NCBI GenBank assembly: GCA_000004695.1 | Contig: CM000151.3 | Coordinates: 6,848,001-6,912,000, forward strand | From: Dictyostelium discoideum | Lineage: Eukaryota | Direction: 5' to 3' | DNA: 64,000 nt | Translations under genes and position numbers: made by a program | In this document: one piece after another, positions 7,116-54,781 of the stretch | Position numbering within the stretch: the stretch's first letter is position 1 | How the letters are laid out: each line of letters opens with the position of its first letter | The notes under the pieces: model-generated | Databases searched by the model: none | The model's input: only the letters and a program-made list of their open reading frames with translations | Told to the model about the DNA's origin: nothing

Positions 7116-7519
7116 GTCCTTTATCAGCATTAAAGAAGTGAAATAAATTTTTAAGTACTGAGTTGACTCAAAAAAAAAAAAAAAAAAAAAAACAAAAAAA
7201 CAAACATCGCACTACGTATAATTTAACACTTTGCTCATTTCTCAATTTAAATTCTTTTAAAAAATTTTTTTTTATTTTTATTTGTTTATTATTTTTATTT
7301 GTTTTTTAATTTTTTAATTTTTTTGGGATATTTTTAGTTTTCTAAAAAAAGAAAAAAAAAAAAAAAAAAAACCAAATATTTAAATTTTTTTTTTTTTTTT
7401 TTAACGACATTTTTTTTTTAAAAATGAAAAATGAAAAATAAAAAAAAAAAAAAAAAAAAAAAGTCGAAATTAAATTTTTTTTTTTTTTTTTTATAAAATC
7501 CTAAGAAATAAAACAAAAG

Positions 7520-8461
7520 ATGGTCTATCAAAAACAAGAACCAAAAAAAAAGAAGGCAATTAAGCCATATCATAGAATTAAAGCACATGCAAATCCAGCA
7601 TCAGATTATAACTTTTATTAGTAAGTAGTTTTTTTATTTTTTTTATATATAATGTTCATAGTTTTACTAATCTTTTTATTTTATTTTATTTTATTTTATT
7701 TTATTTTTTTTTTTAAAAAAAAAAGTCCAACTGGACCAGAATCATATGATTGGACAAAGAATTATCCACAACAAGCAATGAATGAAAAAAAAGTTGAAAT
7801 TGCAGATGTTGGATGCGGATATGGTGGATTATTAATTAGTTTATCATCATTATTTCCAGAAAGATTAAGTGTTGGTATGGAACTTAGAGACAAGGTTGTA
7901 CAATATGTTGAGGAACGTATTGATAAATTACGTGAGAAACATGTTGGTCAATTTCAAAATATCAGTGTCATTAGAACCAATGCAATGAAATATTTACCAA
8001 ACTATTTTGAAAAAGGTCAATTACAAAAGATATTTTTCCTTTTTCCAGACCCACATTTTAAAAAAGCAACACATAAACGTCGTATCATTTCACCAACATT
8101 ACTCTCTGAATATGCATACATTTTGGCACCAGGTGCCTATGCATACTTTATTAGTGACGTTGAAGAACTTTATCTCTGGATGTTTGAACATTTCAAAAAT
8201 CATCCACTCTTTGAACAAGTTGAAAGAGATATCGCTGAAAATGATTCTTGTATTCCTTTAATTGTAAATTCAACTGAAGAAGGTAGAAAAGTCAATCGTA
8301 TCGATGGTAAAAAATGGTTTGCCGTTTTTAGACGTATAACCGATCCTTCAAAAAAAGATTTAACTTTTAAAAATTATACTTTAACTTCACCAAAAGAAAT
8401 TGATTCAACTACAACAACTACAACTTCAACTGCCACTATTACTGAAGTAGAATCAAAATAA
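7520..8461 (+). CDS. tRNA (guanine-N7)-methyltransferase (Trm8/METTL1 family). Two exons: 7520..7620, 7726..8461.
   Basis: Translation matches the METTL1 motifs, in order: YHRIKAHANPASD, ADVGCGYGGLL, FQNISVIRTNAMKYLPNYF, FFLFPDPHFKK.KH..RIISPTLL.EYAY. Donor is GTAAGT at 7621, acceptor AG at 7724..7725. Confidence 0.9.
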
Positions 8462-15247: not shown

Positions 15248-15320
15248 CGCCCAAAGGGGGGCTCGAACCCCCGACCACAAGGTTAAAAGCCTTGCGCTCT
15301 ACCGACTGAGCTATCTGGGC
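15248..15320 (-). tRNA. tRNA-Lys (anticodon UUU), 73 nt.
   Basis: Minus strand reads GCCCAGATAGCTCAGTCGGTAGAGCGCAAGGCTTTTAACCTTGTGGTCGGGGGTTCGAGCCCCCCTTTGGGCG. It folds as a cloverleaf: a 7-bp acceptor stem with one G-U pair, a D-arm (GCTC/GAGC), an anticodon loop CTTTTAA, and a T-arm (GGGGG TTCGAGC CCCCC). The A box (TAGCTCAGTCGG) and B box (GGTTCGAGCCC) are present. Confidence 0.9.
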
Positions 15321-31364: not shown

Positions 31365-31888
31365 TATTTTGAAAAAAATATCTATATTACCAATTATGTT
31401 TTTAAATGTTTTTATTGAGATGAGAAAATAAATAAATTTTTATAAAAAATTAGAGTTTTGATTTTAATTGTTTTAGTTTGGATAGTTGTGTTGTGTTGTG
31501 TTTAATATTCTATTTATAATTTTTGATGAAGTGAAAACGTTAAAATTATTGAATTGCTGAATTGAAATTTAATTCAAAAAAAATAAAATTTATTTTAATT
31601 TTTGTTTTTTTAAGAAAACATTTCAACCATTCGATTTAAATTTTTATTTTTTTATTTTTTTTATTTTTTTGGGTTGAAATGTTTTCTTAAAAAAAATAAT
31701 TCTTCGAAAAAGTTAAATTGAACCGATTAAATAATTTTTTTTTTTTTTTTTTTTTTTTATTAAATAAACAATAATTAAATTAAACCTATTGATATACTTC
31801 AATATTTTTATAATGGTTTTATTTATGAATTTTAATTTTAAAATGTAAAGCTATTTCTTTTTTTTTTAATTTGAATTTTCAAATAAGG

Positions 31889-43920: not shown

Positions 43921-45904
43921 ATTCGTTAAACCCATCATAATAAACTATTTTTTAGTAATATAGCATTAAGTGCGTTTTATTTATTTTAGTATTTTTTATT
44001 GAGTTAGAGGAATCAAAAATTATTATTATATTACTATTATTATTTTAAGTCAATAGTTTTTTAATTTAATTTTATTATAAATCTACAAATCTATATTTCA
44101 TCAATTAATTGGACATTATTCAATACAAATAAAAAAAATAAATGACAACATATATGAACTAAAAATAGAATTTTTTTTTTATATAAACACACCGATCCAA
44201 AAAAAGTGTGGTTAAAATTTAATAACAATATCTAGATTTAAATTTTTTTTTTTTTTTTTTTTTTTATATGTATACTAAAATAAATAAAAAACAAATATAT
44301 ATAAAAGAAATAATTATTTTTATAAATGACGATCATTTATTTTTTATTTGTTATTTATGTCAGTAAAAAATGTTTTGAGAGAAATTTTTTTTTTTTTTTT
44401 TTTATACATACTAACCAAACTTTAAATCAGATTCTACATAAACTAATGTTATAAAAAAAAAAAAAAAAAACAAAAATGAAAAGATATTGGATTTAAATAA
44501 CTGCGAAATAGATTTAAATCAATGAAGTTTTAATAATATCCAAGACCAAACATATGCATAAAAAAAAAATTAAAAAAAAAAAAAAAAAAAAAAAAATTAT
44601 TAAAAATTTATTATTATTTTATTCCAGCTTGTATTTAATTTCCAAGGCAAGAGAATAAAATTTCTATTAATATTCATTAATTTTTTTTTATTTTTTTAAA
44701 GATTTATTAAGAAATACTAAATACTTTATAATGGTTTAATTATTATTTTATTTTTTTTTTTTTTTTTGATTTCATTTTTGATCATGTGATCCAATGAATC
44801 AATATAAAAAAAAATAAAAAAAAAAAAAAATAAAATATTTTAATAAAAATAAAATATTTTGGTTAGTGGTGGGTGTTGATATCAACATTTTACTTTTTAA
44901 AAATCAAAAACCTATTTTTAATGTCAATTGCAACATTAACTAATTACAAATTCTTTCATTAATTCCGAATATTATTAAATATTTTCTTTGAAAACAAAAA
45001 AAAAAAAAGAATAAAAAAACAAAGAGTATTTTATAAAATTGTTTTACATATTTTATATTTTAGTTTTTTTTTTTTTATTTAATTTTTTTTTTTTTTTATT
45101 TTATTTTTATATAGTTTTATTTAATAATTTACGAAAACATATTCTCTTCATTTTAAAATATAAATAATGATATATAGTAAGTTGTAGAAAAAAAAAAAAA
45201 AAAAAAATGAAATTAATAAAAAATATTTTGTTATTTATTTATTAACAATTATTTAATTTAAATTATTTCAGAATCAATGGTTTTTAAATATTATAAATGT
45301 GAATCATGTAATTCAAATCATATAGAATCAGGTTCATCTCATTCAATAAATTATTGTTTGGATTTAAATTCAAGTAAAATTTATAGAAATCTAACATGTA
45401 CATCATTTTTTACTCGCCCAATTTTCCAATCTTTTTAAATATTAGGTCAACACTGAATTTCTTGAAAAAAAAAAAACAAATAAAATAAAAAATCCATCAA
45501 ATGAAAAAACAATTGAACATATATTCCGAAATCAAAATAAGATTAAAAAATTTCAAATTGTTAGATTTTATTTATATTTTTTAAAAAATATTAAAACAAA
45601 CAATTAATAAATTATTTTCATTTTATTTTGCTATTAAAAAAATCATTTATTTCTAAAATTGTTTTTTGAGAAATTAGAATTAAAAAAAAAAAAAGAAAAA
45701 CCCCACAAACAAAAATAATAAAATTAATTCTGGTTAGTCGACACATAATGAAAATAAAACTAATTCTGGTGAGTCAACATTTTGAAAATAAAATTAATTT
45801 ATTTTTAATAAAAAAAAGATTTTTCAATTCTTTTTTTTCTTCATTATTCAAGACGAAAATTGACCATCTTCATCAAAAAAAAAAAATTTAATTTAATTTT
45901 TTTT

Positions 45905-46440
45905 TTGGTAGTGAATGGGGCATAAGATCAGTGAATTTATTTGATTTTCATTTAAAATATCATCCTGAAAGAATACAAACCTATATTAGAGCAGCATTTG
46001 GCTCAATCTTCCTATATTATCATCCAAAATTTATTATTAAGGTTTTAAAATTTTTAGAAGAGTCTATCAATCATAATAAACCATTTACTTTAACTATAAG
46101 TGAAAGAAATTATTTCATTATTAAATATTTAGATAGTTATAAATATAATGAAGAATTGTTTTAAAATGATATTGAATAATCCGATATCACCAACTTCAAT
46201 ATTTCGAAATATCCAAATTTTTAAGAAATTTTCAAGTGTAGATACAAGAATGGGTGTATATAGTTATTTAACTTATAAAAAATTACTCCCTTTTGGATTT
46301 AATAGTATTCGAACATCATTTTATTACCGTAATGAAAGTTCATACGAACCTAAATTAACTTTCTAAAAACAATAATAAAGTATAAAAATAAAACAATAAA
46401 TTATATACACAAATATTAAAAAATTCTTTTGGTAATAAAA
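45905..46440 (+). pseudogene. Truncated, frame-disrupted copy of the 5' part of the 1615-aa gene at 49934..54781 (equivalent to about residues 90-245), fused directly to a copy of that gene's 3' flank.
   Basis: It splits into two frame-shifted ORFs: 45931..46164 (LFDFHLKYHPE.IQT...HPK.IIKVL.F..ESINHNKP.TLT..ERNYFI) and 46148..46366 (NPISPTSIF.N.....LPFGFN.I.TSF). These are about 80% identical at nucleotide level to 50270..50720. The end at 46350..46440 (CTAAATTAACTTTCTAAAAA.AATAA..TATAAAAATAAAACAATA) matches 54850..54905 downstream of the intact gene. Confidence 0.6.
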
Positions 46441-48380: not shown

Positions 48381-49085
48381 ATGGAGACTAAATTAAATTT
48401 TGATGAAGCTATAAATAAAATTGACAAGATATTGAAACTTGGTCAACTTTTTAATGTAGTCGGAGGAGATATCTTTTTCTGTATTTGTAGTACTAGTAAT
48501 TCCGATGTAAATAATATTGATAAACAAGAAAATAATGATAACGGTAATAGTGATAATAAATTTGATGAGCAAGTATGCAAACGTTTTGAAAATAATTTTA
48601 ATACCAGATTTACAAATATGGTAATCAATATAAAAACTAAACCAGTTAGAGTTGAATTTATTGGTAATTGTGATTCAAAATCAACCGAATTAGAAATAAT
48701 TAAATATTATCGTTCAAATCCAAATTTTATTAATTTAGTAGATTATGAAAATAATAGTTCAACCTCTTCAAATGAAAATAATAGATATATTCATATTCGT
48801 CTTTATTCATTACCAAAAGAATGGTCAATGACATATGTTTGTGAAAAATCTTTTGAACATTCCCATACCCACACTCATGAACAAGGTCATGGTCATCATC
48901 ACAATCACCATCATAATCAGAATGATCATCACCATCACCACCATAATGATCTTGACCCTTCCCATCACCATCACCACCACCATGAGGATGATCATTCTCA
49001 TGAACATGGACATTCCCACTCTCATACTCACACCCATACTCACCCAGGCTCAGAAGAAACCTATCAATGTATGAATTTCCATTGA
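48381..49085 (+). CDS. Histidine-rich protein, 234 aa, single exon, a candidate metal-binding protein.
   Basis: A roughly 165-aa N-terminal domain (METKLNFDEAINKIDKILKLGQLFNVVGGDIFFCICSTS...YVCEKSFEHSH) is followed by a 65-aa tail that is over 50% His (HTHTHEQGHGHHHNHHHNQNDHHHHHHNDLDPSHHHHHHHEDDHSHEHGHSHSHTHTHTH). Confidence 0.7.
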   Translation: METKLNFDEAINKIDKILKLGQLFNVVGGDIFFCICSTSNSDVNNIDKQENNDNGNSDNKFDEQVCKRFENNFNTRFTNMVINIKTKPVRVEFIGNCDSKSTELEIIKYYRSNPNFINLVDYENNSSTSSNENNRYIHIRLYSLPKEWSMTYVCEKSFEHSHTHTHEQGHGHHHNHHHNQNDHHHHHHNDLDPSHHHHHHHEDDHSHEHGHSHSHTHTHTHPGSEETYQCMNFH

Positions 49086-49247
49086 TAATAATTAGTGTTT
49101 AACTTTATCAAGAAATTTTTTTTTTTCCAAGGATATTGGAAAATAAAAGAATAAAAAATTAAAAAATAAAGATTGAAGGGTTATTATTATTTCGTATTTT
49201 ATTTATTTGTATTTATTAATTTTTCACCTCAATTACATAAATTGAAC

Positions 49248-49283
<36 letters not shown>

Positions 49284-49369
49284 CTAAAAATAGAAAAAAA
49301 AAAAAAAATCTGTATAATAATGTTCATGATATCAAATATTTTTCATTGAAATTTAATTCTTATTAATTT

Positions 49370-49640
49370 GAAGATTGAAAGAAAAAAAGACTATTTCTTG
49401 GATGTCCAAAACAAAAATTCATTTTATTTTTTTTATTTTTTTATTTTAATTTTTTTAATTTTTCTTTTTTCATTTTTTTTTTTTTTTAAAACAAAACTTA
49501 AATAAAAATAATAAATAATCAAAGAATTGGATGAGTACTTCAAACCATTATCACTTCAAATTGTTATTTGTAAGAAAATAATAATAAATAATCAAAGAAT
49601 TGGATGGGTACTTCAAACCATTATCACATTTAAATCTTTG
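49370..49640 (+). repeat. Duplicated copy of the promoter and 5'-leader of the 1615-aa gene (compare 49790..49933). In the copy the ATG region is replaced by two tandem copies of a body-derived segment (GGATGRGTACTTCAAACCATTATCAC, compare 54634..54660 and 52898..52920).
   Basis: Direct repeats seen by eye. GATTTCTTGGAT(G/A)TCCAAAACAAAAATT...AAATAAAAATAATAAATAAT occurs at both 49385..49530 and 49800..49935. Confidence 0.55.
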
Positions 49641-49746
49641 TTATCTGTCCCAAAATTACCATAATAATTTCAGCCTAAAAACGGGTTGTTTATGCATGCT
49701 TAAATTGATATGGTAATTTTGGGACAGATAACAAAGATTTAAATGT
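49626..49746. repeat. Perfect 38-bp inverted repeat (ACATTTAAATCTTTGTTATCTGTCCCAAAATTACCATA / TATGGTAATTTTGGGACAGATAACAAAGATTTAAATGT) with a 45-bp GC-containing spacer. It could be a foldback or MITE-like element, or a hairpin RNA.
   Basis: Arms at 49626..49663 and 49709..49746 are exact reverse complements. The spacer is ATAATTTCAGCCTAAAAACGGGTTGTTTATGCATGCTTAAATTGA. Confidence 0.8.
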
Positions 49747-49933
49747 AGAGCTTTTATTTTTTTCTATTTCTAAATAAGTTGGTATGAATTTTGAAAATCA
49801 AAAGAAAAAAACACGATTTCTTGGATATCCAAAACAAAAATTTTTTTTTTTTTAATTTTTTTATTTTTTCATTTTTTTTTTATTTTTTTTTTTCTTTTAA
49901 ACAAAATATAAATAAAAATAATAAATAATTATA

Positions 49934-52900
49934 ATGAATAATGAATATAATGAATTATTATTTTGGAAAGTTTTTAAAAATAATTATTTATTAAATTGTA
50001 TATTAAAAAATAAATGTTGTTATAAAAGTAAAAAATTTAAAACTATTACATCAATAGATTCAATGTTAAAACATAAACAATATCAACTGTTGATATGTAA
50101 ATTAAAAGCAGATGAAAATTTGTATTTTAAAGGAAAATATGGAAATGATGAGATCATTAATAGAATAGAAGATATAGAAGTATTCAAAGAGATATATTCA
50201 TTATTACTCTTTAAAGGTTATCAAGATACTAGGGATCATCGTATTTTATTCGATAGTATTTGGGGTATAAAATCAGTAGATTTATTTGATTTTCATTTAA
50301 AATATCATCCAGAAGAATTACAAACCCATATTACAACATCCATATACTCAATCTTGGTATATAATCATCCAAAATTAATAATAAAGGTTTTAAATTTTTT
50401 TAAAGAGTCCATCAATCATAATAAACCAATAACTTTAACCAAAAATGAAAGAAATTATTTCATTATGGAATATTTATATTATTGTAGATATGGAAGAAAT
50501 ATTGAAGAATTGAAAGAAAAGATGAAAATGATATGGAATATTCCAATATCGTCAACCTCAATATTTCATAATTCAGAAAAAAGAGTTCCAAGTGCGAATG
50601 TAGGTTGTTTTCTAAAATATCAAAAATTATTACCTTTTGGATTTAATAATATTCAAACATCATTTGATTGCTCTAAAGAAAATCCAAGGAGTTATTCTTC
50701 TATTGGTGATAGGCGGGGAGATGAAAATAATCAACGTTCTGTTTATAGCATAAATCATTTAAATATGTTTTCAAGTTTTTGTTATGACTTTGATGATAGT
50801 ATTTGCGAGTACATAAAAGATGTTAAAGGAAATTTTGAGTGTATCTCTTCATCTATCAAATCAGTTTTATTATATTTTAAATTGTATTATTGCAACTATG
50901 ATTATAAAAGTAAATCAAAAAGTATACCAACATCGATTCAAACTCAAATTGATATAATAATTGAAAATAGTAAACATAGACGTTGTACTGTATATCAATC
51001 AATTAAACAATTATTTCAACTATTAGCCATTGAATCAAAATCAATTGTTTTATATGCATTTTATTTAAAAGAATATAATGAACCAATTGATACCATTGAA
51101 CTTAGTGAAGAAATTCAATTATTGTTAATATATTACATGATAAAAACCTATAACACCAATATATTAAAGTTTCTATTGAAAAAACATTTAAAAATCAAAT
51201 TAACAAAATTAGATTTGGACTATATTGGTGAATCATATCTCAAATTTTTATTTAAAAGTAAACAAATTAATAAAAACAATATTATTATGTTCTACAAAAA
51301 CTACACATCACAAAAATCAATCATTATAGAAGATTTAGATGAAAAACCACTAGATGATGCAATATCAACAAAGGAACTTATTGATTTGGACAATAAACGA
51401 TTACATTCAATTCTAGGTAATGAATCATCATCGAAATGGAAAGAAATTACATCAAATATAATTGATAATGATATGATTGTTACAATTAAAGATAAAGAAA
51501 CAATCGATTGGTTATCAGATATAGAAACAGGTGGTGGTTGTAGTATTTTAAAAATAAGAGATGCTTTAAATTCAAAATTAAAACAAATGAAACTTGATTT
51601 TAGTACATTGGAATTATTAGAATATGCAAGAATCAAATTTAAACAAGTAATTCCAATTTTAGATTTAAATAAAGAGTTGTGTAATATCCACATTTTACGT
51701 ACTCATGATGATATTGAATCATTAATCAATCGTTTAAACCAATCAAACTTTAATAACAATGAAAATTTATTTAAATATTATATGATTCAAATAATTCAAT
51801 TTGGTTCAAGAAATTCAATGAAATACCTAAGATTAATTTGTGATTCTATTGACGAGTTATTAATGGACTATGAAGGTTGGGTAATTTTAGATGACACTTT
51901 AAGAAGGTTTTATATTAACTCATACCTAATAGAAGGAGAGATATGGGACAATTCAGTAGGTTATCATGAAAATAAAAAGTTCAAAGAATACAAAATACCA
52001 ACTCAACAAACATGTCAAATAATCAATCTCACCAAAATTAAAGTCAATTTCAATCACTTTCCAAATGTAACTTCTTATTTATTACAAACATTTATCGAAC
52101 TTTTAAATTTTGAAGGTGTTCAGTTTATTCTTGATAATTTAAATGGTAAAAATTTAAAATTAAATGAAAAAGCATTTAAAGATCGTTTTCATGATAGAAT
52201 CTATACATGCAAATATTTATATAAAGATTTGATTGAAATGATTCAATTTTTAATTAATAAATTCAAAGATGGTCAATTATCATTATCAAATTTATCATTG
52301 ATATTAAATTTCTTATTTTCAATGTTAATTAGAGTCAATGATTTAACAAATGATCAAATCAAAACAGCTTATCAATCAATATCAAACTATATTGAAATAG
52401 ATAGTTCAGAACTCAATTCATACTATTATTTAAAAACATTATCACCCATTATTTCATCATGTATTATCATTTTTAGAGATAATGGTGGTGGTGATGTTAG
52501 ACCATTACTTGAATATCATATAGATACATCAGTATATACATTCGAACATATATTTACAAATAGAAATAATAACGATCTGAACCAATTTATCGATTCAACA
52601 ATCATGGATATTGTAAAAGATCGTTTTTATTCTAATTTAAACAAAATGTTAGATAACAATAATCCAAGAATTAATTTATTTTTACATTATTTCGAAATTC
52701 AATTAAAATACAAAAATGAAAATGATTTCAAAGGACCATTTTTAAATTATAAACTATTGAAATTAATAATTAAAACATTTGATTTAGAATCATTTATTAA
52801 ATTAGATAGTTTATTAGAGAACCATAATGGTAATTGTGAGCAAGAGGGTTCAAATAACAGGATTTTAAGCGAATTAGAGAAATTTTATTTTAATTGGAAA

Positions 52901-54781
52901 AAACCATTATCATCTAATATGGTTGAATGGTTTGGTATAATTGTATACAAAGATTATTCAGATTATCAAGATATTATAAATTACTTATTTAATAAATATA
53001 AACACCAATTGGAACCATATATAATTTACTATAAATTAAAAATAAATAATAAATCAATAACTAATAATCAGTTACATTCAATTTTATGTAATAAATCATC
53101 ATCGAAATGGAAAGAAATTACATCGAATCTAATTGGTAAGGCCGCTGCTACAATTAAAGATAAAGAAACAATCGATTGGTTATCAGATATAGAAACAGGT
53201 GGTTGTAGTAATTTAAAAATAAGAGATGCTTTACATTCAAGATTAAATCATATGGAACTTGATTTTAGTTCATTGGAATTATTAGAGTATGCAAGAATCA
53301 AATTTAAACAAATCATTTCAATTTTCGATTTATGTGATGAGTTTTTCGAAATTCATATTTTACATACTCATGATGAAATTGAATCATTAATCAATCGTTT
53401 AAACCAATCAAACTTTAATGAAAATGAAGATTTATTTAAAAATTATATGATTCAAATAATTGAATTTGGTTCAAGACTTTCAGCTAAACACATAAGATCA
53501 ATCTTTAAATCATTGGAATATGGCGTTGACAAGTCATCATTGGGAAATGATAATTATAAAGAGTGGAAGTATTTAATAAACAAAGTTTTCAAATACGAGT
53601 ATAGAAGGTTTTTTGATAACCCCTCATACATCCATGAAGAATATTTTTTGGGCCAAATACTACGTGATCATAAAAACGAAGAATACAAAGAATACAATAT
53701 ACCAACTCGACAAGAATCTCAAATAATCAATCTTTCTAAAATTAAAGTCAATTTCAATCACTTTGCAAATGTAACTTCTTATTTATTTCAAGGATCCATC
53801 GAACTTTTAAATTTTGAAGGTGTTCAATTTATTCTTGATAATTTAAATGGTAAAGATTTAAAATTAAATGAAAAAGCATTTAAAGATCATTTTCATGATA
53901 GAATCTATTCATGCGAATATGTTTCTAAAGATTTATATGATACCATTCAATTTTTAATTGAAAAATTCGAAGATGGTCAATTATCACTATCAAATCTATC
54001 ATTGATATTAAATTACTTATTTTCCAAGTTAATTAGAGTCAATGATTTAACAATTGATCAAATCAACATATCTCATCAATTAATATCAAACTATATTGAA
54101 ATAGATAGTTCAAAATACAATTCATACTATTATTTAAAAATATTATCACCAATTATTGAATCATGTATTACCGTTATCGAAGGTCCTACAAGTGATGATG
54201 AAGATGGTAATGGAAAACCAAGACCATTCTGTCATTATGATATAGATACATCAGTATATACATTCGAACACATATTTACAAATAGAAATAATAACGATCA
54301 GAACCAATTTATCGATTCAACAATCATGGATATTGTAAAAGATAATTTTACAATTGAAATATTTTCCAAAATGTTAGATAATAATAATCCAAGAATTAAT
54401 TTATTTTTACATTATTTCGAAATGGAATTAAAAAAAAGAAAAACAAGTAATGATTTCGAAAATGTATTTTTAGAATTTGAACAATTGAAATTAATAATTA
54501 AAACATTTGATTTAGAATCATTTATTAAATTTGAATATTTATTACAACAATATCAATTCTACTTATCACCTGATATCGATGAATGGTCAGATATAAACAA
54601 AGAGTATGCAAATGATCAAGAGGATATAAATGATGGGTACGTCAAACCATTATCATCTAATTTGGTTGAATGGTTTGGTAAAATTTCATTCATATATTAT
54701 CCAGATTATCCAGATATTCTTAATTACTTATTTGATAAATATAAAAACCAATTCGAACCATATACTAATTATATAAATTAA
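49934..54781 (+). CDS. Large hypothetical protein, 1615 aa, single exon. It has a roughly 480-aa N-terminal region followed by two tandem copies, each about 560 aa, of a repeat unit.
   Basis: An uninterrupted ORF. Residues about 488-1050 and 1050-1615 are about 75% identical. Examples: HSILGNESSSKWKEITSNII...KDKETIDWLSDIETGGGCSILKIRDALNSKL vs HSILCNKSSSKWKEITSNLI...KDKETIDWLSDIETGGCSNLKIRDALHSRL. Both units end KPLSSN.VEWFG...DY.DI.NYLF.KYK.Q.EPY. I recognise no known domain. Confidence 0.8.
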   Translation: MNNEYNELLFWKVFKNNYLLNCILKNKCCYKSKKFKTITSIDSMLKHKQYQLLICKLKADENLYFKGKYGNDEIINRIEDIEVFKEIYSLLLFKGYQDTRDHRILFDSIWGIKSVDLFDFHLKYHPEELQTHITTSIYSILVYNHPKLIIKVLNFFKESINHNKPITLTKNERNYFIMEYLYYCRYGRNIEELKEKMKMIWNIPISSTSIFHNSEKRVPSANVGCFLKYQKLLPFGFNNIQTSFDCSKENPRSYSSIGDRRGDENNQRSVYSINHLNMFSSFCYDFDDSICEYIKDVKGNFECISSSIKSVLLYFKLYYCNYDYKSKSKSIPTSIQTQIDIIIENSKHRRCTVYQSIKQLFQLLAIESKSIVLYAFYLKEYNEPIDTIELSEEIQLLLIYYMIKTYNTNILKFLLKKHLKIKLTKLDLDYIGESYLKFLFKSKQINKNNIIMFYKNYTSQKSIIIEDLDEKPLDDAISTKELIDLDNKRLHSILGNESSSKWKEITSNIIDNDMIVTIKDKETIDWLSDIETGGGCSILKIRDALNSKLKQMKLDFSTLELLEYARIKFKQVIPILDLNKELCNIHILRTHDDIESLINRLNQSNFNNNENLFKYYMIQIIQFGSRNSMKYLRLICDSIDELLMDYEGWVILDDTLRRFYINSYLIEGEIWDNSVGYHENKKFKEYKIPTQQTCQIINLTKIKVNFNHFPNVTSYLLQTFIELLNFEGVQFILDNLNGKNLKLNEKAFKDRFHDRIYTCKYLYKDLIEMIQFLINKFKDGQLSLSNLSLILNFLFSMLIRVNDLTNDQIKTAYQSISNYIEIDSSELNSYYYLKTLSPIISSCIIIFRDNGGGDVRPLLEYHIDTSVYTFEHIFTNRNNNDLNQFIDSTIMDIVKDRFYSNLNKMLDNNNPRINLFLHYFEIQLKYKNENDFKGPFLNYKLLKLIIKTFDLESFIKLDSLLENHNGNCEQEGSNNRILSELEKFYFNWKKPLSSNMVEWFGIIVYKDYSDYQDIINYLFNKYKHQLEPYIIYYKLKINNKSITNNQLHSILCNKSSSKWKEITSNLIGKAAATIKDKETIDWLSDIETGGCSNLKIRDALHSRLNHMELDFSSLELLEYARIKFKQIISIFDLCDEFFEIHILHTHDEIESLINRLNQSNFNENEDLFKNYMIQIIEFGSRLSAKHIRSIFKSLEYGVDKSSLGNDNYKEWKYLINKVFKYEYRRFFDNPSYIHEEYFLGQILRDHKNEEYKEYNIPTRQESQIINLSKIKVNFNHFANVTSYLFQGSIELLNFEGVQFILDNLNGKDLKLNEKAFKDHFHDRIYSCEYVSKDLYDTIQFLIEKFEDGQLSLSNLSLILNYLFSKLIRVNDLTIDQINISHQLISNYIEIDSSKYNSYYYLKILSPIIESCITVIEGPTSDDEDGNGKPRPFCHYDIDTSVYTFEHIFTNRNNNDQNQFIDSTIMDIVKDNFTIEIFSKMLDNNNPRINLFLHYFEMELKKRKTSNDFENVFLEFEQLKLIIKTFDLESFIKFEYLLQQYQFYLSPDIDEWSDINKEYANDQEDINDGYVKPLSSNLVEWFGKISFIYYPDYPDILNYLFDKYKNQFEPYTNYIN

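Follow-up and report, generated by a model that had tools for sequence, protein, structure and literature searches.

A second promoter and a long hairpin upstream of DDB_G0276559 in Dictyostelium discoideum: probable remains of a lost tandem paralogue

Introduction

Upstream of the gene DDB_G0276559, a second copy of the promoter and leader runs not into a start codon but into short pieces of coding sequence that end beside an inverted repeat. The question raised by this arrangement is how it came about and whether it serves the gene at present; a sequence-only reading had taken it as a footprint of illegitimate recombination or template switching within the gene family. The window analysed here, by which the whole stretch of 64,000 nucleotides is meant, is extremely AT-rich, with long intergenic poly-A/T tracts, in a genome of ~78% A+T. 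Its 1615-aa open reading frame matches the Dictyostelium discoideum AX4 gene DDB_G0276559 with 100% identity, and the locus is taken as part of chromosome 2. The features discussed below are collected in Table 1, in which the short coding remnants of the array are called crumbs.

Table 1. Features of the DDB_G0276559 locus and of related loci (window coordinates unless a comparison locus is named).
Feature	Coordinates	Strand	Description
Second family relic (gene X)	45899..46410	+	Found by tblastn; codons ~107-244 joined directly to family-type 3'UTR
Promoter/leader copy A (distal, relic)	~49331..49523	+	Delimited by alignment to copy B; 5' flank collinear with the single promoter of L001, L002, L003 and L004
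Parts of copy A			5' flank ATCAAATATTTTTCATTGAAATTT; box 49367-49420; oligo-dT tract 49421-49487; leader 49488-49519
73-bp tandem array	49504..49656	+	Tandem Repeats Finder: period 73, 2.1 copies, 85% matches, score 212
Coding crumb 1	49513..49553	+	Reads IIKELDEYFKPLS in the family frame; joined to the leader at the AAATAAT microhomology
Coding crumb 2	49586..49629	+	Reads IIKELDGYFKPLS(H); its end overlaps the beginning of the palindrome
Palindrome	49626..49746	.	Arms 49626-49674 and 49698-49746, 23-nt loop
Promoter/leader copy B (proximal, presumed working promoter)	~49752..49933	+	Continuous with the start codon
DDB_G0276559	49934..54781	+	1615 aa; own KPLSS segment 54631-54656
Repeated units of DDB_G0276559	about 51386-53029 and 53057-54772		
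Palindrome upstream of gene X	L002 1239-1385; L003 1246-1394		Contains the gene X promoter box
L001 palindrome	L001 7736-7807		34-nt arms, 97% complementary, 4-nt centre; between the relic 3'UTR and the promoter

The host gene and its family

DDB_G0276559 is an in-frame fusion: a full-length family member (~aa 1-1041) is followed by the C-terminal half of another (aa 1042-1613), and residues 485-1032 and 1042-1613 share 64% identity. The first unit ends a few codons before the typical family stop (…EPYIIYYKLKINNKS vs …EPYVIYYKLKLLNQKFG*) and is followed by re-entry at the equivalent of residue ~484. Typical members have ~1030-1100 aa; the syntenic genes of other strains encode 1122, 1483, 1630 and 1973 aa, and differ in the number of C-terminal units. 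A Pfam search of DDB_G0276559 and of its His-rich neighbour returned zero domains. The relatives of the protein amount to 29 proteins, solely from D. discoideum and "D. cf. discoideum", and an exhaustive HMMER search with P0011, a typical member, against 1.84 billion representative proteins gave only 17 matches, each with at least 55% identity. Because so few relatives occur among so many proteins, this is a taxonomically restricted orphan family found only in the D. discoideum complex. Its members are arranged as tandem paralogues whose copy number depends on the strain, and no mention was found in a literature search for the gene identifiers and the hairpin arm sequences.

The N-terminal part of the family gene (window 49934-51390) is 87% identical between D. 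discoideum strains, compared with 98.4% for the His-rich neighbour (48381-49085). The downstream kinase ORF is unusually divergent too (91–93% against L002 and L003). The contrast of both values with that of the His-rich gene points to deep haplotypes, or to paralogues that were differentially retained at the locus.

Comparison haplotypes

Via P0030, a cluster member of the 1615-aa protein, a second assembly (GCA_054883475.1, locus L006) was reached, which over 20 kb shares 99.4% identity with the window and shows the same arrangement of copy A, the array and the palindrome. Since the whole structure is present in this independent assembly, it is not an assembly artefact, and that reading was rejected. 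Between 49034 and 49943, AX4 and L006 differ by substitutions at 49039, 49243/4, 49664, 49701, 49707 and 49833, together with differences in homopolymer length, a measure that is untrustworthy in the comparison assemblies. Further syntenic loci come from D. cf. discoideum (L001, a cryptic-species strain, and L004) and from D. discoideum (L002 and L003); all four have the His-rich gene upstream and NTF2 and kinase genes downstream. A 2025 preprint on birth-and-death evolution of the tgr family describes Nanopore assemblies for strains of D. discoideum, two cryptic-species strains among them (10.1101/2025.10.22.684067), and the comparison assemblies are plausibly those of this preprint.

Two copies of the promoter and leader

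In DNA so rich in A and T, alignments are uncertain outside G/C-containing blocks, and a lenient blastn search against the window was swamped by AT-rich low-complexity matches among which the bit score did not discriminate. For this reason, motifs containing G or C were searched separately against shuffled controls, in addition to alignments with shuffle tests. Copy A lies ~410–423 bp upstream of copy B, with ungapped blocks at offsets 423 and 410, and positions 49360-49530 align to 49783-49945 with 86% column identity over ~170 nt. The 28-mer box GATTTCTTGGATATCCAAAACAAAAATT, which is not of low complexity, occurs in the window only at 49815 (0 mismatches) and 49392 (2 mismatches), where shuffles lead one to expect 0.00 occurrences; the leader 31-mer likewise occurs only at 49899 (0 mismatches) and 49489 (2 mismatches), with 0.01 expected by chance. 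The similarity of copies A and B is true homology, above the AT-rich background, and the second promoter and leader that had been noticed ~420 bp upstream of the start is real: its similarity to copy B extends beyond A/T runs. The two copies diverge by ~13–19%, which makes the duplication an old one.

A single promoter is found in each of the four haplotypes L001, L002, L003 and L004. Copy A of AX4 retains the 5' flank of this single promoter (ATCAAA.ATT.TTCATTGAAATTTAATT…) and copy B retains its continuity with the ATG; at informative sites the single promoter of L002 and L003 is split between types A and B. The box shared by A and B belongs only to this locus and its orthologues, the upstream regions of the L005 paralogues g1 and g2 being unrelated and gene X having only a related box.

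The tandem array and its coding crumbs

Each 73-bp unit of the array comprises the end of the leader, a crumb of ~40 nt and the start of the left arm of the palindrome, and the 48-nt cores of the units are identical at 47 of 48 positions. A 26-mer occurs at 49529-49554 and at 49602-49627, with a third site at 54631 (3 mismatches). The crumbs are homologous to the 3' coding segment "…IKELDGY.KPLS" of the family, whose sequence around the KPLS codons is GAAAAT(A/T)TA(A/G)TAATCAAA(G/C)AATTGG…. The AX4 unit matches a 3'-end relic of L001 located between the His-rich gene and the promoter (7340-7420) at 40/44, the 3' end of the L004 orthologue at 41/47, the 3' end of DDB_G0276559 itself (54632-54655) at 23/24 (E 6e-6 within the window) and the end of the first internal unit of the gene (52901-52912) at 12/12.

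It follows from these matches that the sequence-only reading was right to see the start region replaced by fragments homologous to the 3' coding region of the family. As to the more precise source that it named, the KPLSSN segment near the 3' end of the gene, the family homology stands and the origin from the gene's own copy does not: the match is restricted to the 24-nt core, the flanks AATCAAAGAATTGG and TCACAT are not present at the 3' end of DDB_G0276559, and for these reasons the crumbs, although family-derived, are unlikely to stem from it judging by the sequences compared. The second site that had been proposed for comparison, 52895..52925, matches weakly, over the 12 nt given above. 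None of the retrieved AX4 family proteins encodes IKELDGYFKPLS; the sequences nearest to the crumb peptide are IKELGGYIKPLSS of P0013 (the L004 orthologue) and IKKLDGYVKPLSH of the L001 relic. A histidine after KPLS had been considered as a derived character shared by the AX4 and L001 relics, and was downgraded, as the ACAT of TCACAT is also the first four bases of the palindrome.

At the first junction, the crumb homology starts within AAATAAT, which is also the end of the leader, and this start identifies the junction as a microhomology join of the leader to near-3' coding sequence, with an AT-rich match of ~7–13 nt between the two. In unit 1, the 25-nt spacer (TTCAAATTGTTATTTGTAAGAAAAT) corresponds to the beginning (~29 nt) of the palindrome's left arm (p<0.0005, shuffle test); its interpretation as a continuation of the coding homology (KPLSSNLVEWFG) was rejected (p 0.3-0.5) in favour of the palindrome arm. 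Since the spacer matches the arm, the 73-bp duplication copied both junctions, postdates the crumb/palindrome junction and came last. It is bounded by AAAAT motifs. Thus the two tandem fragments of the sequence-only reading are both present, not adjacent to each other but within one 73-bp array, and they are the product of a single later duplication that also took in the beginning of the palindrome arm, instead of two separate insertions. Within the units, the 48-nt core is 98% identical and the arm-derived part only ~76%. Positions 49090-49933 contain only low-complexity ORFs of up to 58 aa and no intact family frame, and the ATGs in the crumbs are out of the family frame, with stops after 16 and 9 codons.

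The palindrome

The inverted repeat that had been reported next to the copy is perfect over 38 nt, and its full arms are 94% complementary over 49 nt in AX4, with a predicted folding energy of -69.3 kcal/mol (z = -11.7). In L006 the palindrome is perfect (49/49 nt, 23-nt loop). The AX4/L006 substitutions at 49664, 49701 and 49707 (L006 7731, 7768 and 7774) are clustered in the inner stem and all perfect the L006 palindrome; they could represent mutations in AX4, quasi-palindrome correction in the L006 strain or sequencing error through the hairpin. Inverted repeats of this kind, perfect over 18 bp or more and not of low complexity, are otherwise rare: the window contains two, this one included, and the other (31605-31695) has a 24-nt stem and a 43-nt loop.

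The loop and right arm (GTTGTTTATGCATGCTTAAATTGATATGGTAATTTTGGGA…) align to L004 7634-7745, upstream of the L004 promoter (z = 6.5), and the same TTTTTCTATT(T)CTAAA motif follows the aligned segment. The L004 sequence shows no more at this spot than an inverted repeat that is short and imperfect (ATTAATATGG/CCATATTAAT), and the palindrome is absent from L001, L002 and L003. As the loop and right arm are homologous to the L004 spacer, the palindrome is local sequence that was made palindromic and not foreign DNA. Its left arm abuts the crumb with an overlap of 1–4 nt, which to judge from the sequence is the pattern expected from fold-back or template-switch repair, so that one of these would be the repair pathway. 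An exact 18-nt match (CCATATTAATTTCAGCAG) to the palindrome-related L004 segment was also seen on the minus strand of L005 (9437-9454), at a site between two family paralogues; it may be due to chance, because the flanks do not match.

The long terminal inverted arms and short centre would also be expected of a small MITE-like transposon that inserted beside the relic by chance. Such an insertion is very improbable, given that the flanks (…CCATTATC, ending in TTATC, and AGAGCTTT…, starting with AGAGC) show no direct repeat that could be a target-site duplication, that no other copy is present in the 64-kb window or in the six fetched loci (~127 kb) except at the orthologous site of L006, and that the loop and right arm correspond to spacer sequence resident in L004. 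The MITE reading was rejected on these three grounds, the target site, the copy number within the window and the fetched loci, and the local origin of the sequence.

Another possibility is that the block is a functional unit, in which the spare promoter drives a hairpin RNA of miRNA or siRNA type, or provides an alternative start that regulates DDB_G0276559 through upstream ORFs and leader structure. A very stable hairpin does lie downstream of a complete-looking promoter copy, it is intact and even more perfect in L006, and there are sub-threshold Rfam matches to plant miRNA families with long hairpins. We nevertheless regard this reading as improbable, since these matches (MIR7807, 48.5 against a gathering score of 90; MIR1862, 46.8 against 84) reflect a generic hairpin shape, and at the gathering threshold Rfam detects nothing in the studied region. 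Moreover, the palindrome is missing from three haplotypes and takes a rearranged short form in L004, its arms have no homology to any gene in the window and hence no evident target, and the literature search yielded no mention of the sequence or the gene. A further argument against this reading is that a perfect stem of 49 bp far exceeds the typical length in microRNA precursors.

Probable origin of the block from a lost tandem paralogue

On the whole of this evidence, 49331-49746 is probably the decayed, non-coding wreck of a tandem sister of DDB_G0276559, here called gene A. Gene A would have stood between the His-rich gene and the present gene, with its own promoter/leader of ~190 bp, and would have arisen by tandem duplication of a family gene plus its promoter. 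In the order of the next two steps that we infer, a deletion would then have joined the end of the gene A leader (…AAAATAATAAATAAT) to a look-alike AT-rich stretch ~135 nt before the stop codon (family consensus GAAAAT(A/T)TA(A/G)TAATCAAAG…), with removal of nearly all of the coding sequence. What was left of the 3' end, with the 3'UTR, would next have been lost at …CCATTATCA, where fold-back or template-switch repair, primed on a short pre-existing quasi-palindrome, would have attached a copy of the downstream spacer in inverted orientation to the broken end and so produced the 49-bp palindrome. Finally, replication slippage between the AAAAT motifs would have duplicated 73 bp across both junctions and so created the two 'tandem' fragments.

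Several lines of evidence favour the lost paralogue. The two copies are true homologues with a locus-specific box, L006 has the same structure, and the four other haplotypes are single-promoter, with the 5' flank of that promoter kept by A and the continuity with the ATG kept by B. The divergence of A and B fits an old paralogous pair, and the palindrome is local sequence, with the 73-bp duplication later than its junction to the crumb. The crumb matches none of the retrieved AX4 family proteins, and the gene's own 3' end over 24 nt only. L001 carries in the same intergenic interval (7230-7680) ~300 bp of a "terminal-type" 3' coding end (…FGKISFKYYSDYQDIFNYLFNKYKHQFEPYMNNIN*) followed by the family 3'UTR, a second copy of which lies downstream of the L001 gene; this is the relic that the crumb matches at 40/44, and it shows that, in one lineage or more, a family gene formerly ended in front of the promoter of this locus. 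The fusion in DDB_G0276559 and the variable number of C-terminal units document a tandem array collapsing by deletion at the locus, and the relic at 45899-46410, described below, is a full gene in L002 and L003. It was also observed (L001 12509-12529 vs window 54443-54737) that the final ~300 bp of coding sequence are missing from their normal place in the L001 orthologue; this missing 3' end and the similar 3' end upstream of the promoter could reflect a translocation or two independent events.

On the other hand, only ~40 nt of coding sequence survive, so that a complete gene A is inferred rather than observed, and none of the sampled haplotypes carries an intact gene in the interval from the His-rich gene to the present gene. 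A relic is also missing from L002, L003 and L004; as L002 and L003 are more closely related to AX4, going by the His-rich gene (98.4%), this requires a secondary complete loss or deep haplotype divergence. The His codon of TCACAT shared by the AX4 and L001 relics is ambiguous, and the uneven identity of core and arm within the 73-bp units and the uncertainty of alignments in AT-rich DNA likewise weigh against the lost paralogue.

The main rival, which corresponds to the sequence-only reading, dispenses with gene A: only the promoter/leader (~190 bp) would have been duplicated in place, and the gap filled by serial template switches (MMBIR/FoSTeS or polymerase-theta end-joining) in which repair copied a short piece of a family 3' end twice, together with an inverted piece of nearby spacer. 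The microhomologies at both junctions (AAATAAT and CA/AC), the shortness of the copied piece, the inverted copy adjoining it and the lack of an intact upstream gene in any sampled haplotype agree with such a filler. We hold this rival to be somewhat unlikely, because the best template available in AX4, the gene's own 3' end, differs at one position of the core and lacks both flanks, and is thus not the near-identical donor that copying would require; an exact or near-exact CAAAGAATTGGATGGGTACTTCAAACCATTATCAC in an extant AX4 paralogue would favour a copied filler. In addition, the two copies go back to one later slippage that includes palindrome sequence and not to two template switches, the event is old in either case, and the longer 3'-end relic of L001 with its duplicate 3'UTR in the same interval is left unexplained. 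Copies A and B are therefore better explained as the promoters of formerly tandem paralogues than by a recent local template switch, with which the divergence of A and B disagrees; the earlier proposal does hold for the junctions, which resemble those of illegitimate recombination, with AT-rich microhomology, a slippage duplication and a fold-back palindrome.

A second relic and palindromes at family junctions

The lost paralogue would not be the only family casualty in the window. The relic of gene X at 45899-46410 is 93% identical to L002 1798-2250, with its 3'UTR part matching L002 4848-5108, and L002 and L003 have an intact gene X of 1107 and 1100 aa, respectively. On its left side, the deletion in AX4 begins where L002 and L003 have the centre of a palindrome (59-nt arms in L002, 41-nt arms in L003). 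In the L001 palindrome, the right arm is the ancestral promoter flank (CATTGAAATTAAAATGATTATTAATTTGAA). Three unrelated palindromes are thus situated at family junctions, namely that of AX4 and L006, that of L001 and that upstream of gene X in L002 and L003.

A speculative and rather doubtful idea is that rearrangement at the 5' flanks of this orphan family repeatedly gives rise to long palindromes or is driven by them. If it were true, and palindrome formation and breakage fuelled gene birth, fusion and death, the hypervariability of the family would be explained, and the family would serve as a natural model for the diversification of gene families through palindromes in DNA of such high A+T content. 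As a mutational mechanism, the recurrence of palindromes at family breakpoints is the point most worth pursuing.

Relation to known systems

A solo-promoter or pseudogene relic with microhomology and fold-back junctions is an already known kind of structure, of which the present locus is a new instance. Gene families of this sort are described by the birth-and-death model of Nei and Rooney, which was recently applied to the Dictyostelium tgr family (10.1101/2025.10.22.684067). The locus resembles the unprocessed pseudogene relics of such tandem families in having strain-variable tandem paralogues and deletion-truncated neighbouring relics; here too members fuse, and one of them, though intact in some strains, is reduced to a fragment in AX4. 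It differs in that ~40 nt of coding sequence are left and chiefly the promoter/leader survives, as a 'solo promoter', and in that the family of DDB_G0276559 is an uncharacterised orphan family and, unlike tgr, not a family of recognition genes.

With microhomology-mediated deletion and replication slippage, the locus shares the AT-rich match at the first junction and a duplication lying between AAAAT motifs; AT-rich microhomologies are however abundant in this genome and are accordingly weak evidence, and the pathway is not assignable from sequence alone. With fold-back inverted duplication and quasi-palindrome correction (Ripley-type; FoSTeS/MMBIR), it shares a long, near-perfect palindrome located exactly at a rearrangement junction, in which a short unique centre separates the arms and one of them is ancestral local sequence, and the L004 repeat could have primed the fold-back. 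The scale is small in comparison (49-bp arms), the palindrome is an old fixed germline feature and not a somatic or disease rearrangement, and the L004-like and AX4-like states are not polarised with respect to each other. Hairpin-RNA precursors such as MIR7807 and MIR1862 are alike in having a long stable hairpin downstream of promoter-like sequence; the hairpin described here reaches about half of the gathering scores, and shows neither conservation between haplotypes nor an identifiable target.

Consequences and further observations

The locus appears to be a genomic scar of gene-family turnover, for which no function is indicated, and its direct importance is small for that reason. The present-day effect of the copy A block is probably nil or mildly negative: a transcript from copy A would carry the two short upstream ORFs, AATAAA motifs and the -69 kcal/mol hairpin before the start codon. 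Annotators of the 5' region of DDB_G0276559 should be warned of a second promoter-like block and a strong hairpin, and the gene and its relatives deserve to be flagged as species-restricted, hypervariable, fusion-prone and variable in copy number. The comparison of several haplotypes makes the erasure of a paralogue readable base by base, through microhomology deletion, fold-back palindrome and slippage duplication.

Elsewhere in the window, positions 45695-45780 contain a direct repeat (TAATTCTGGT(T/G)AGTC(G)ACA, twice, ~40 nt apart) downstream of ACCCCACAAAC, which resembles the upstream sequence element of Dictyostelium genes for small RNAs; Rfam reports nothing there at the gathering threshold. 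The sole RNA gene detected in the window, and the only Rfam match at that threshold, is a tRNA-Lys (UUU) at 15248-15320 on the minus strand.
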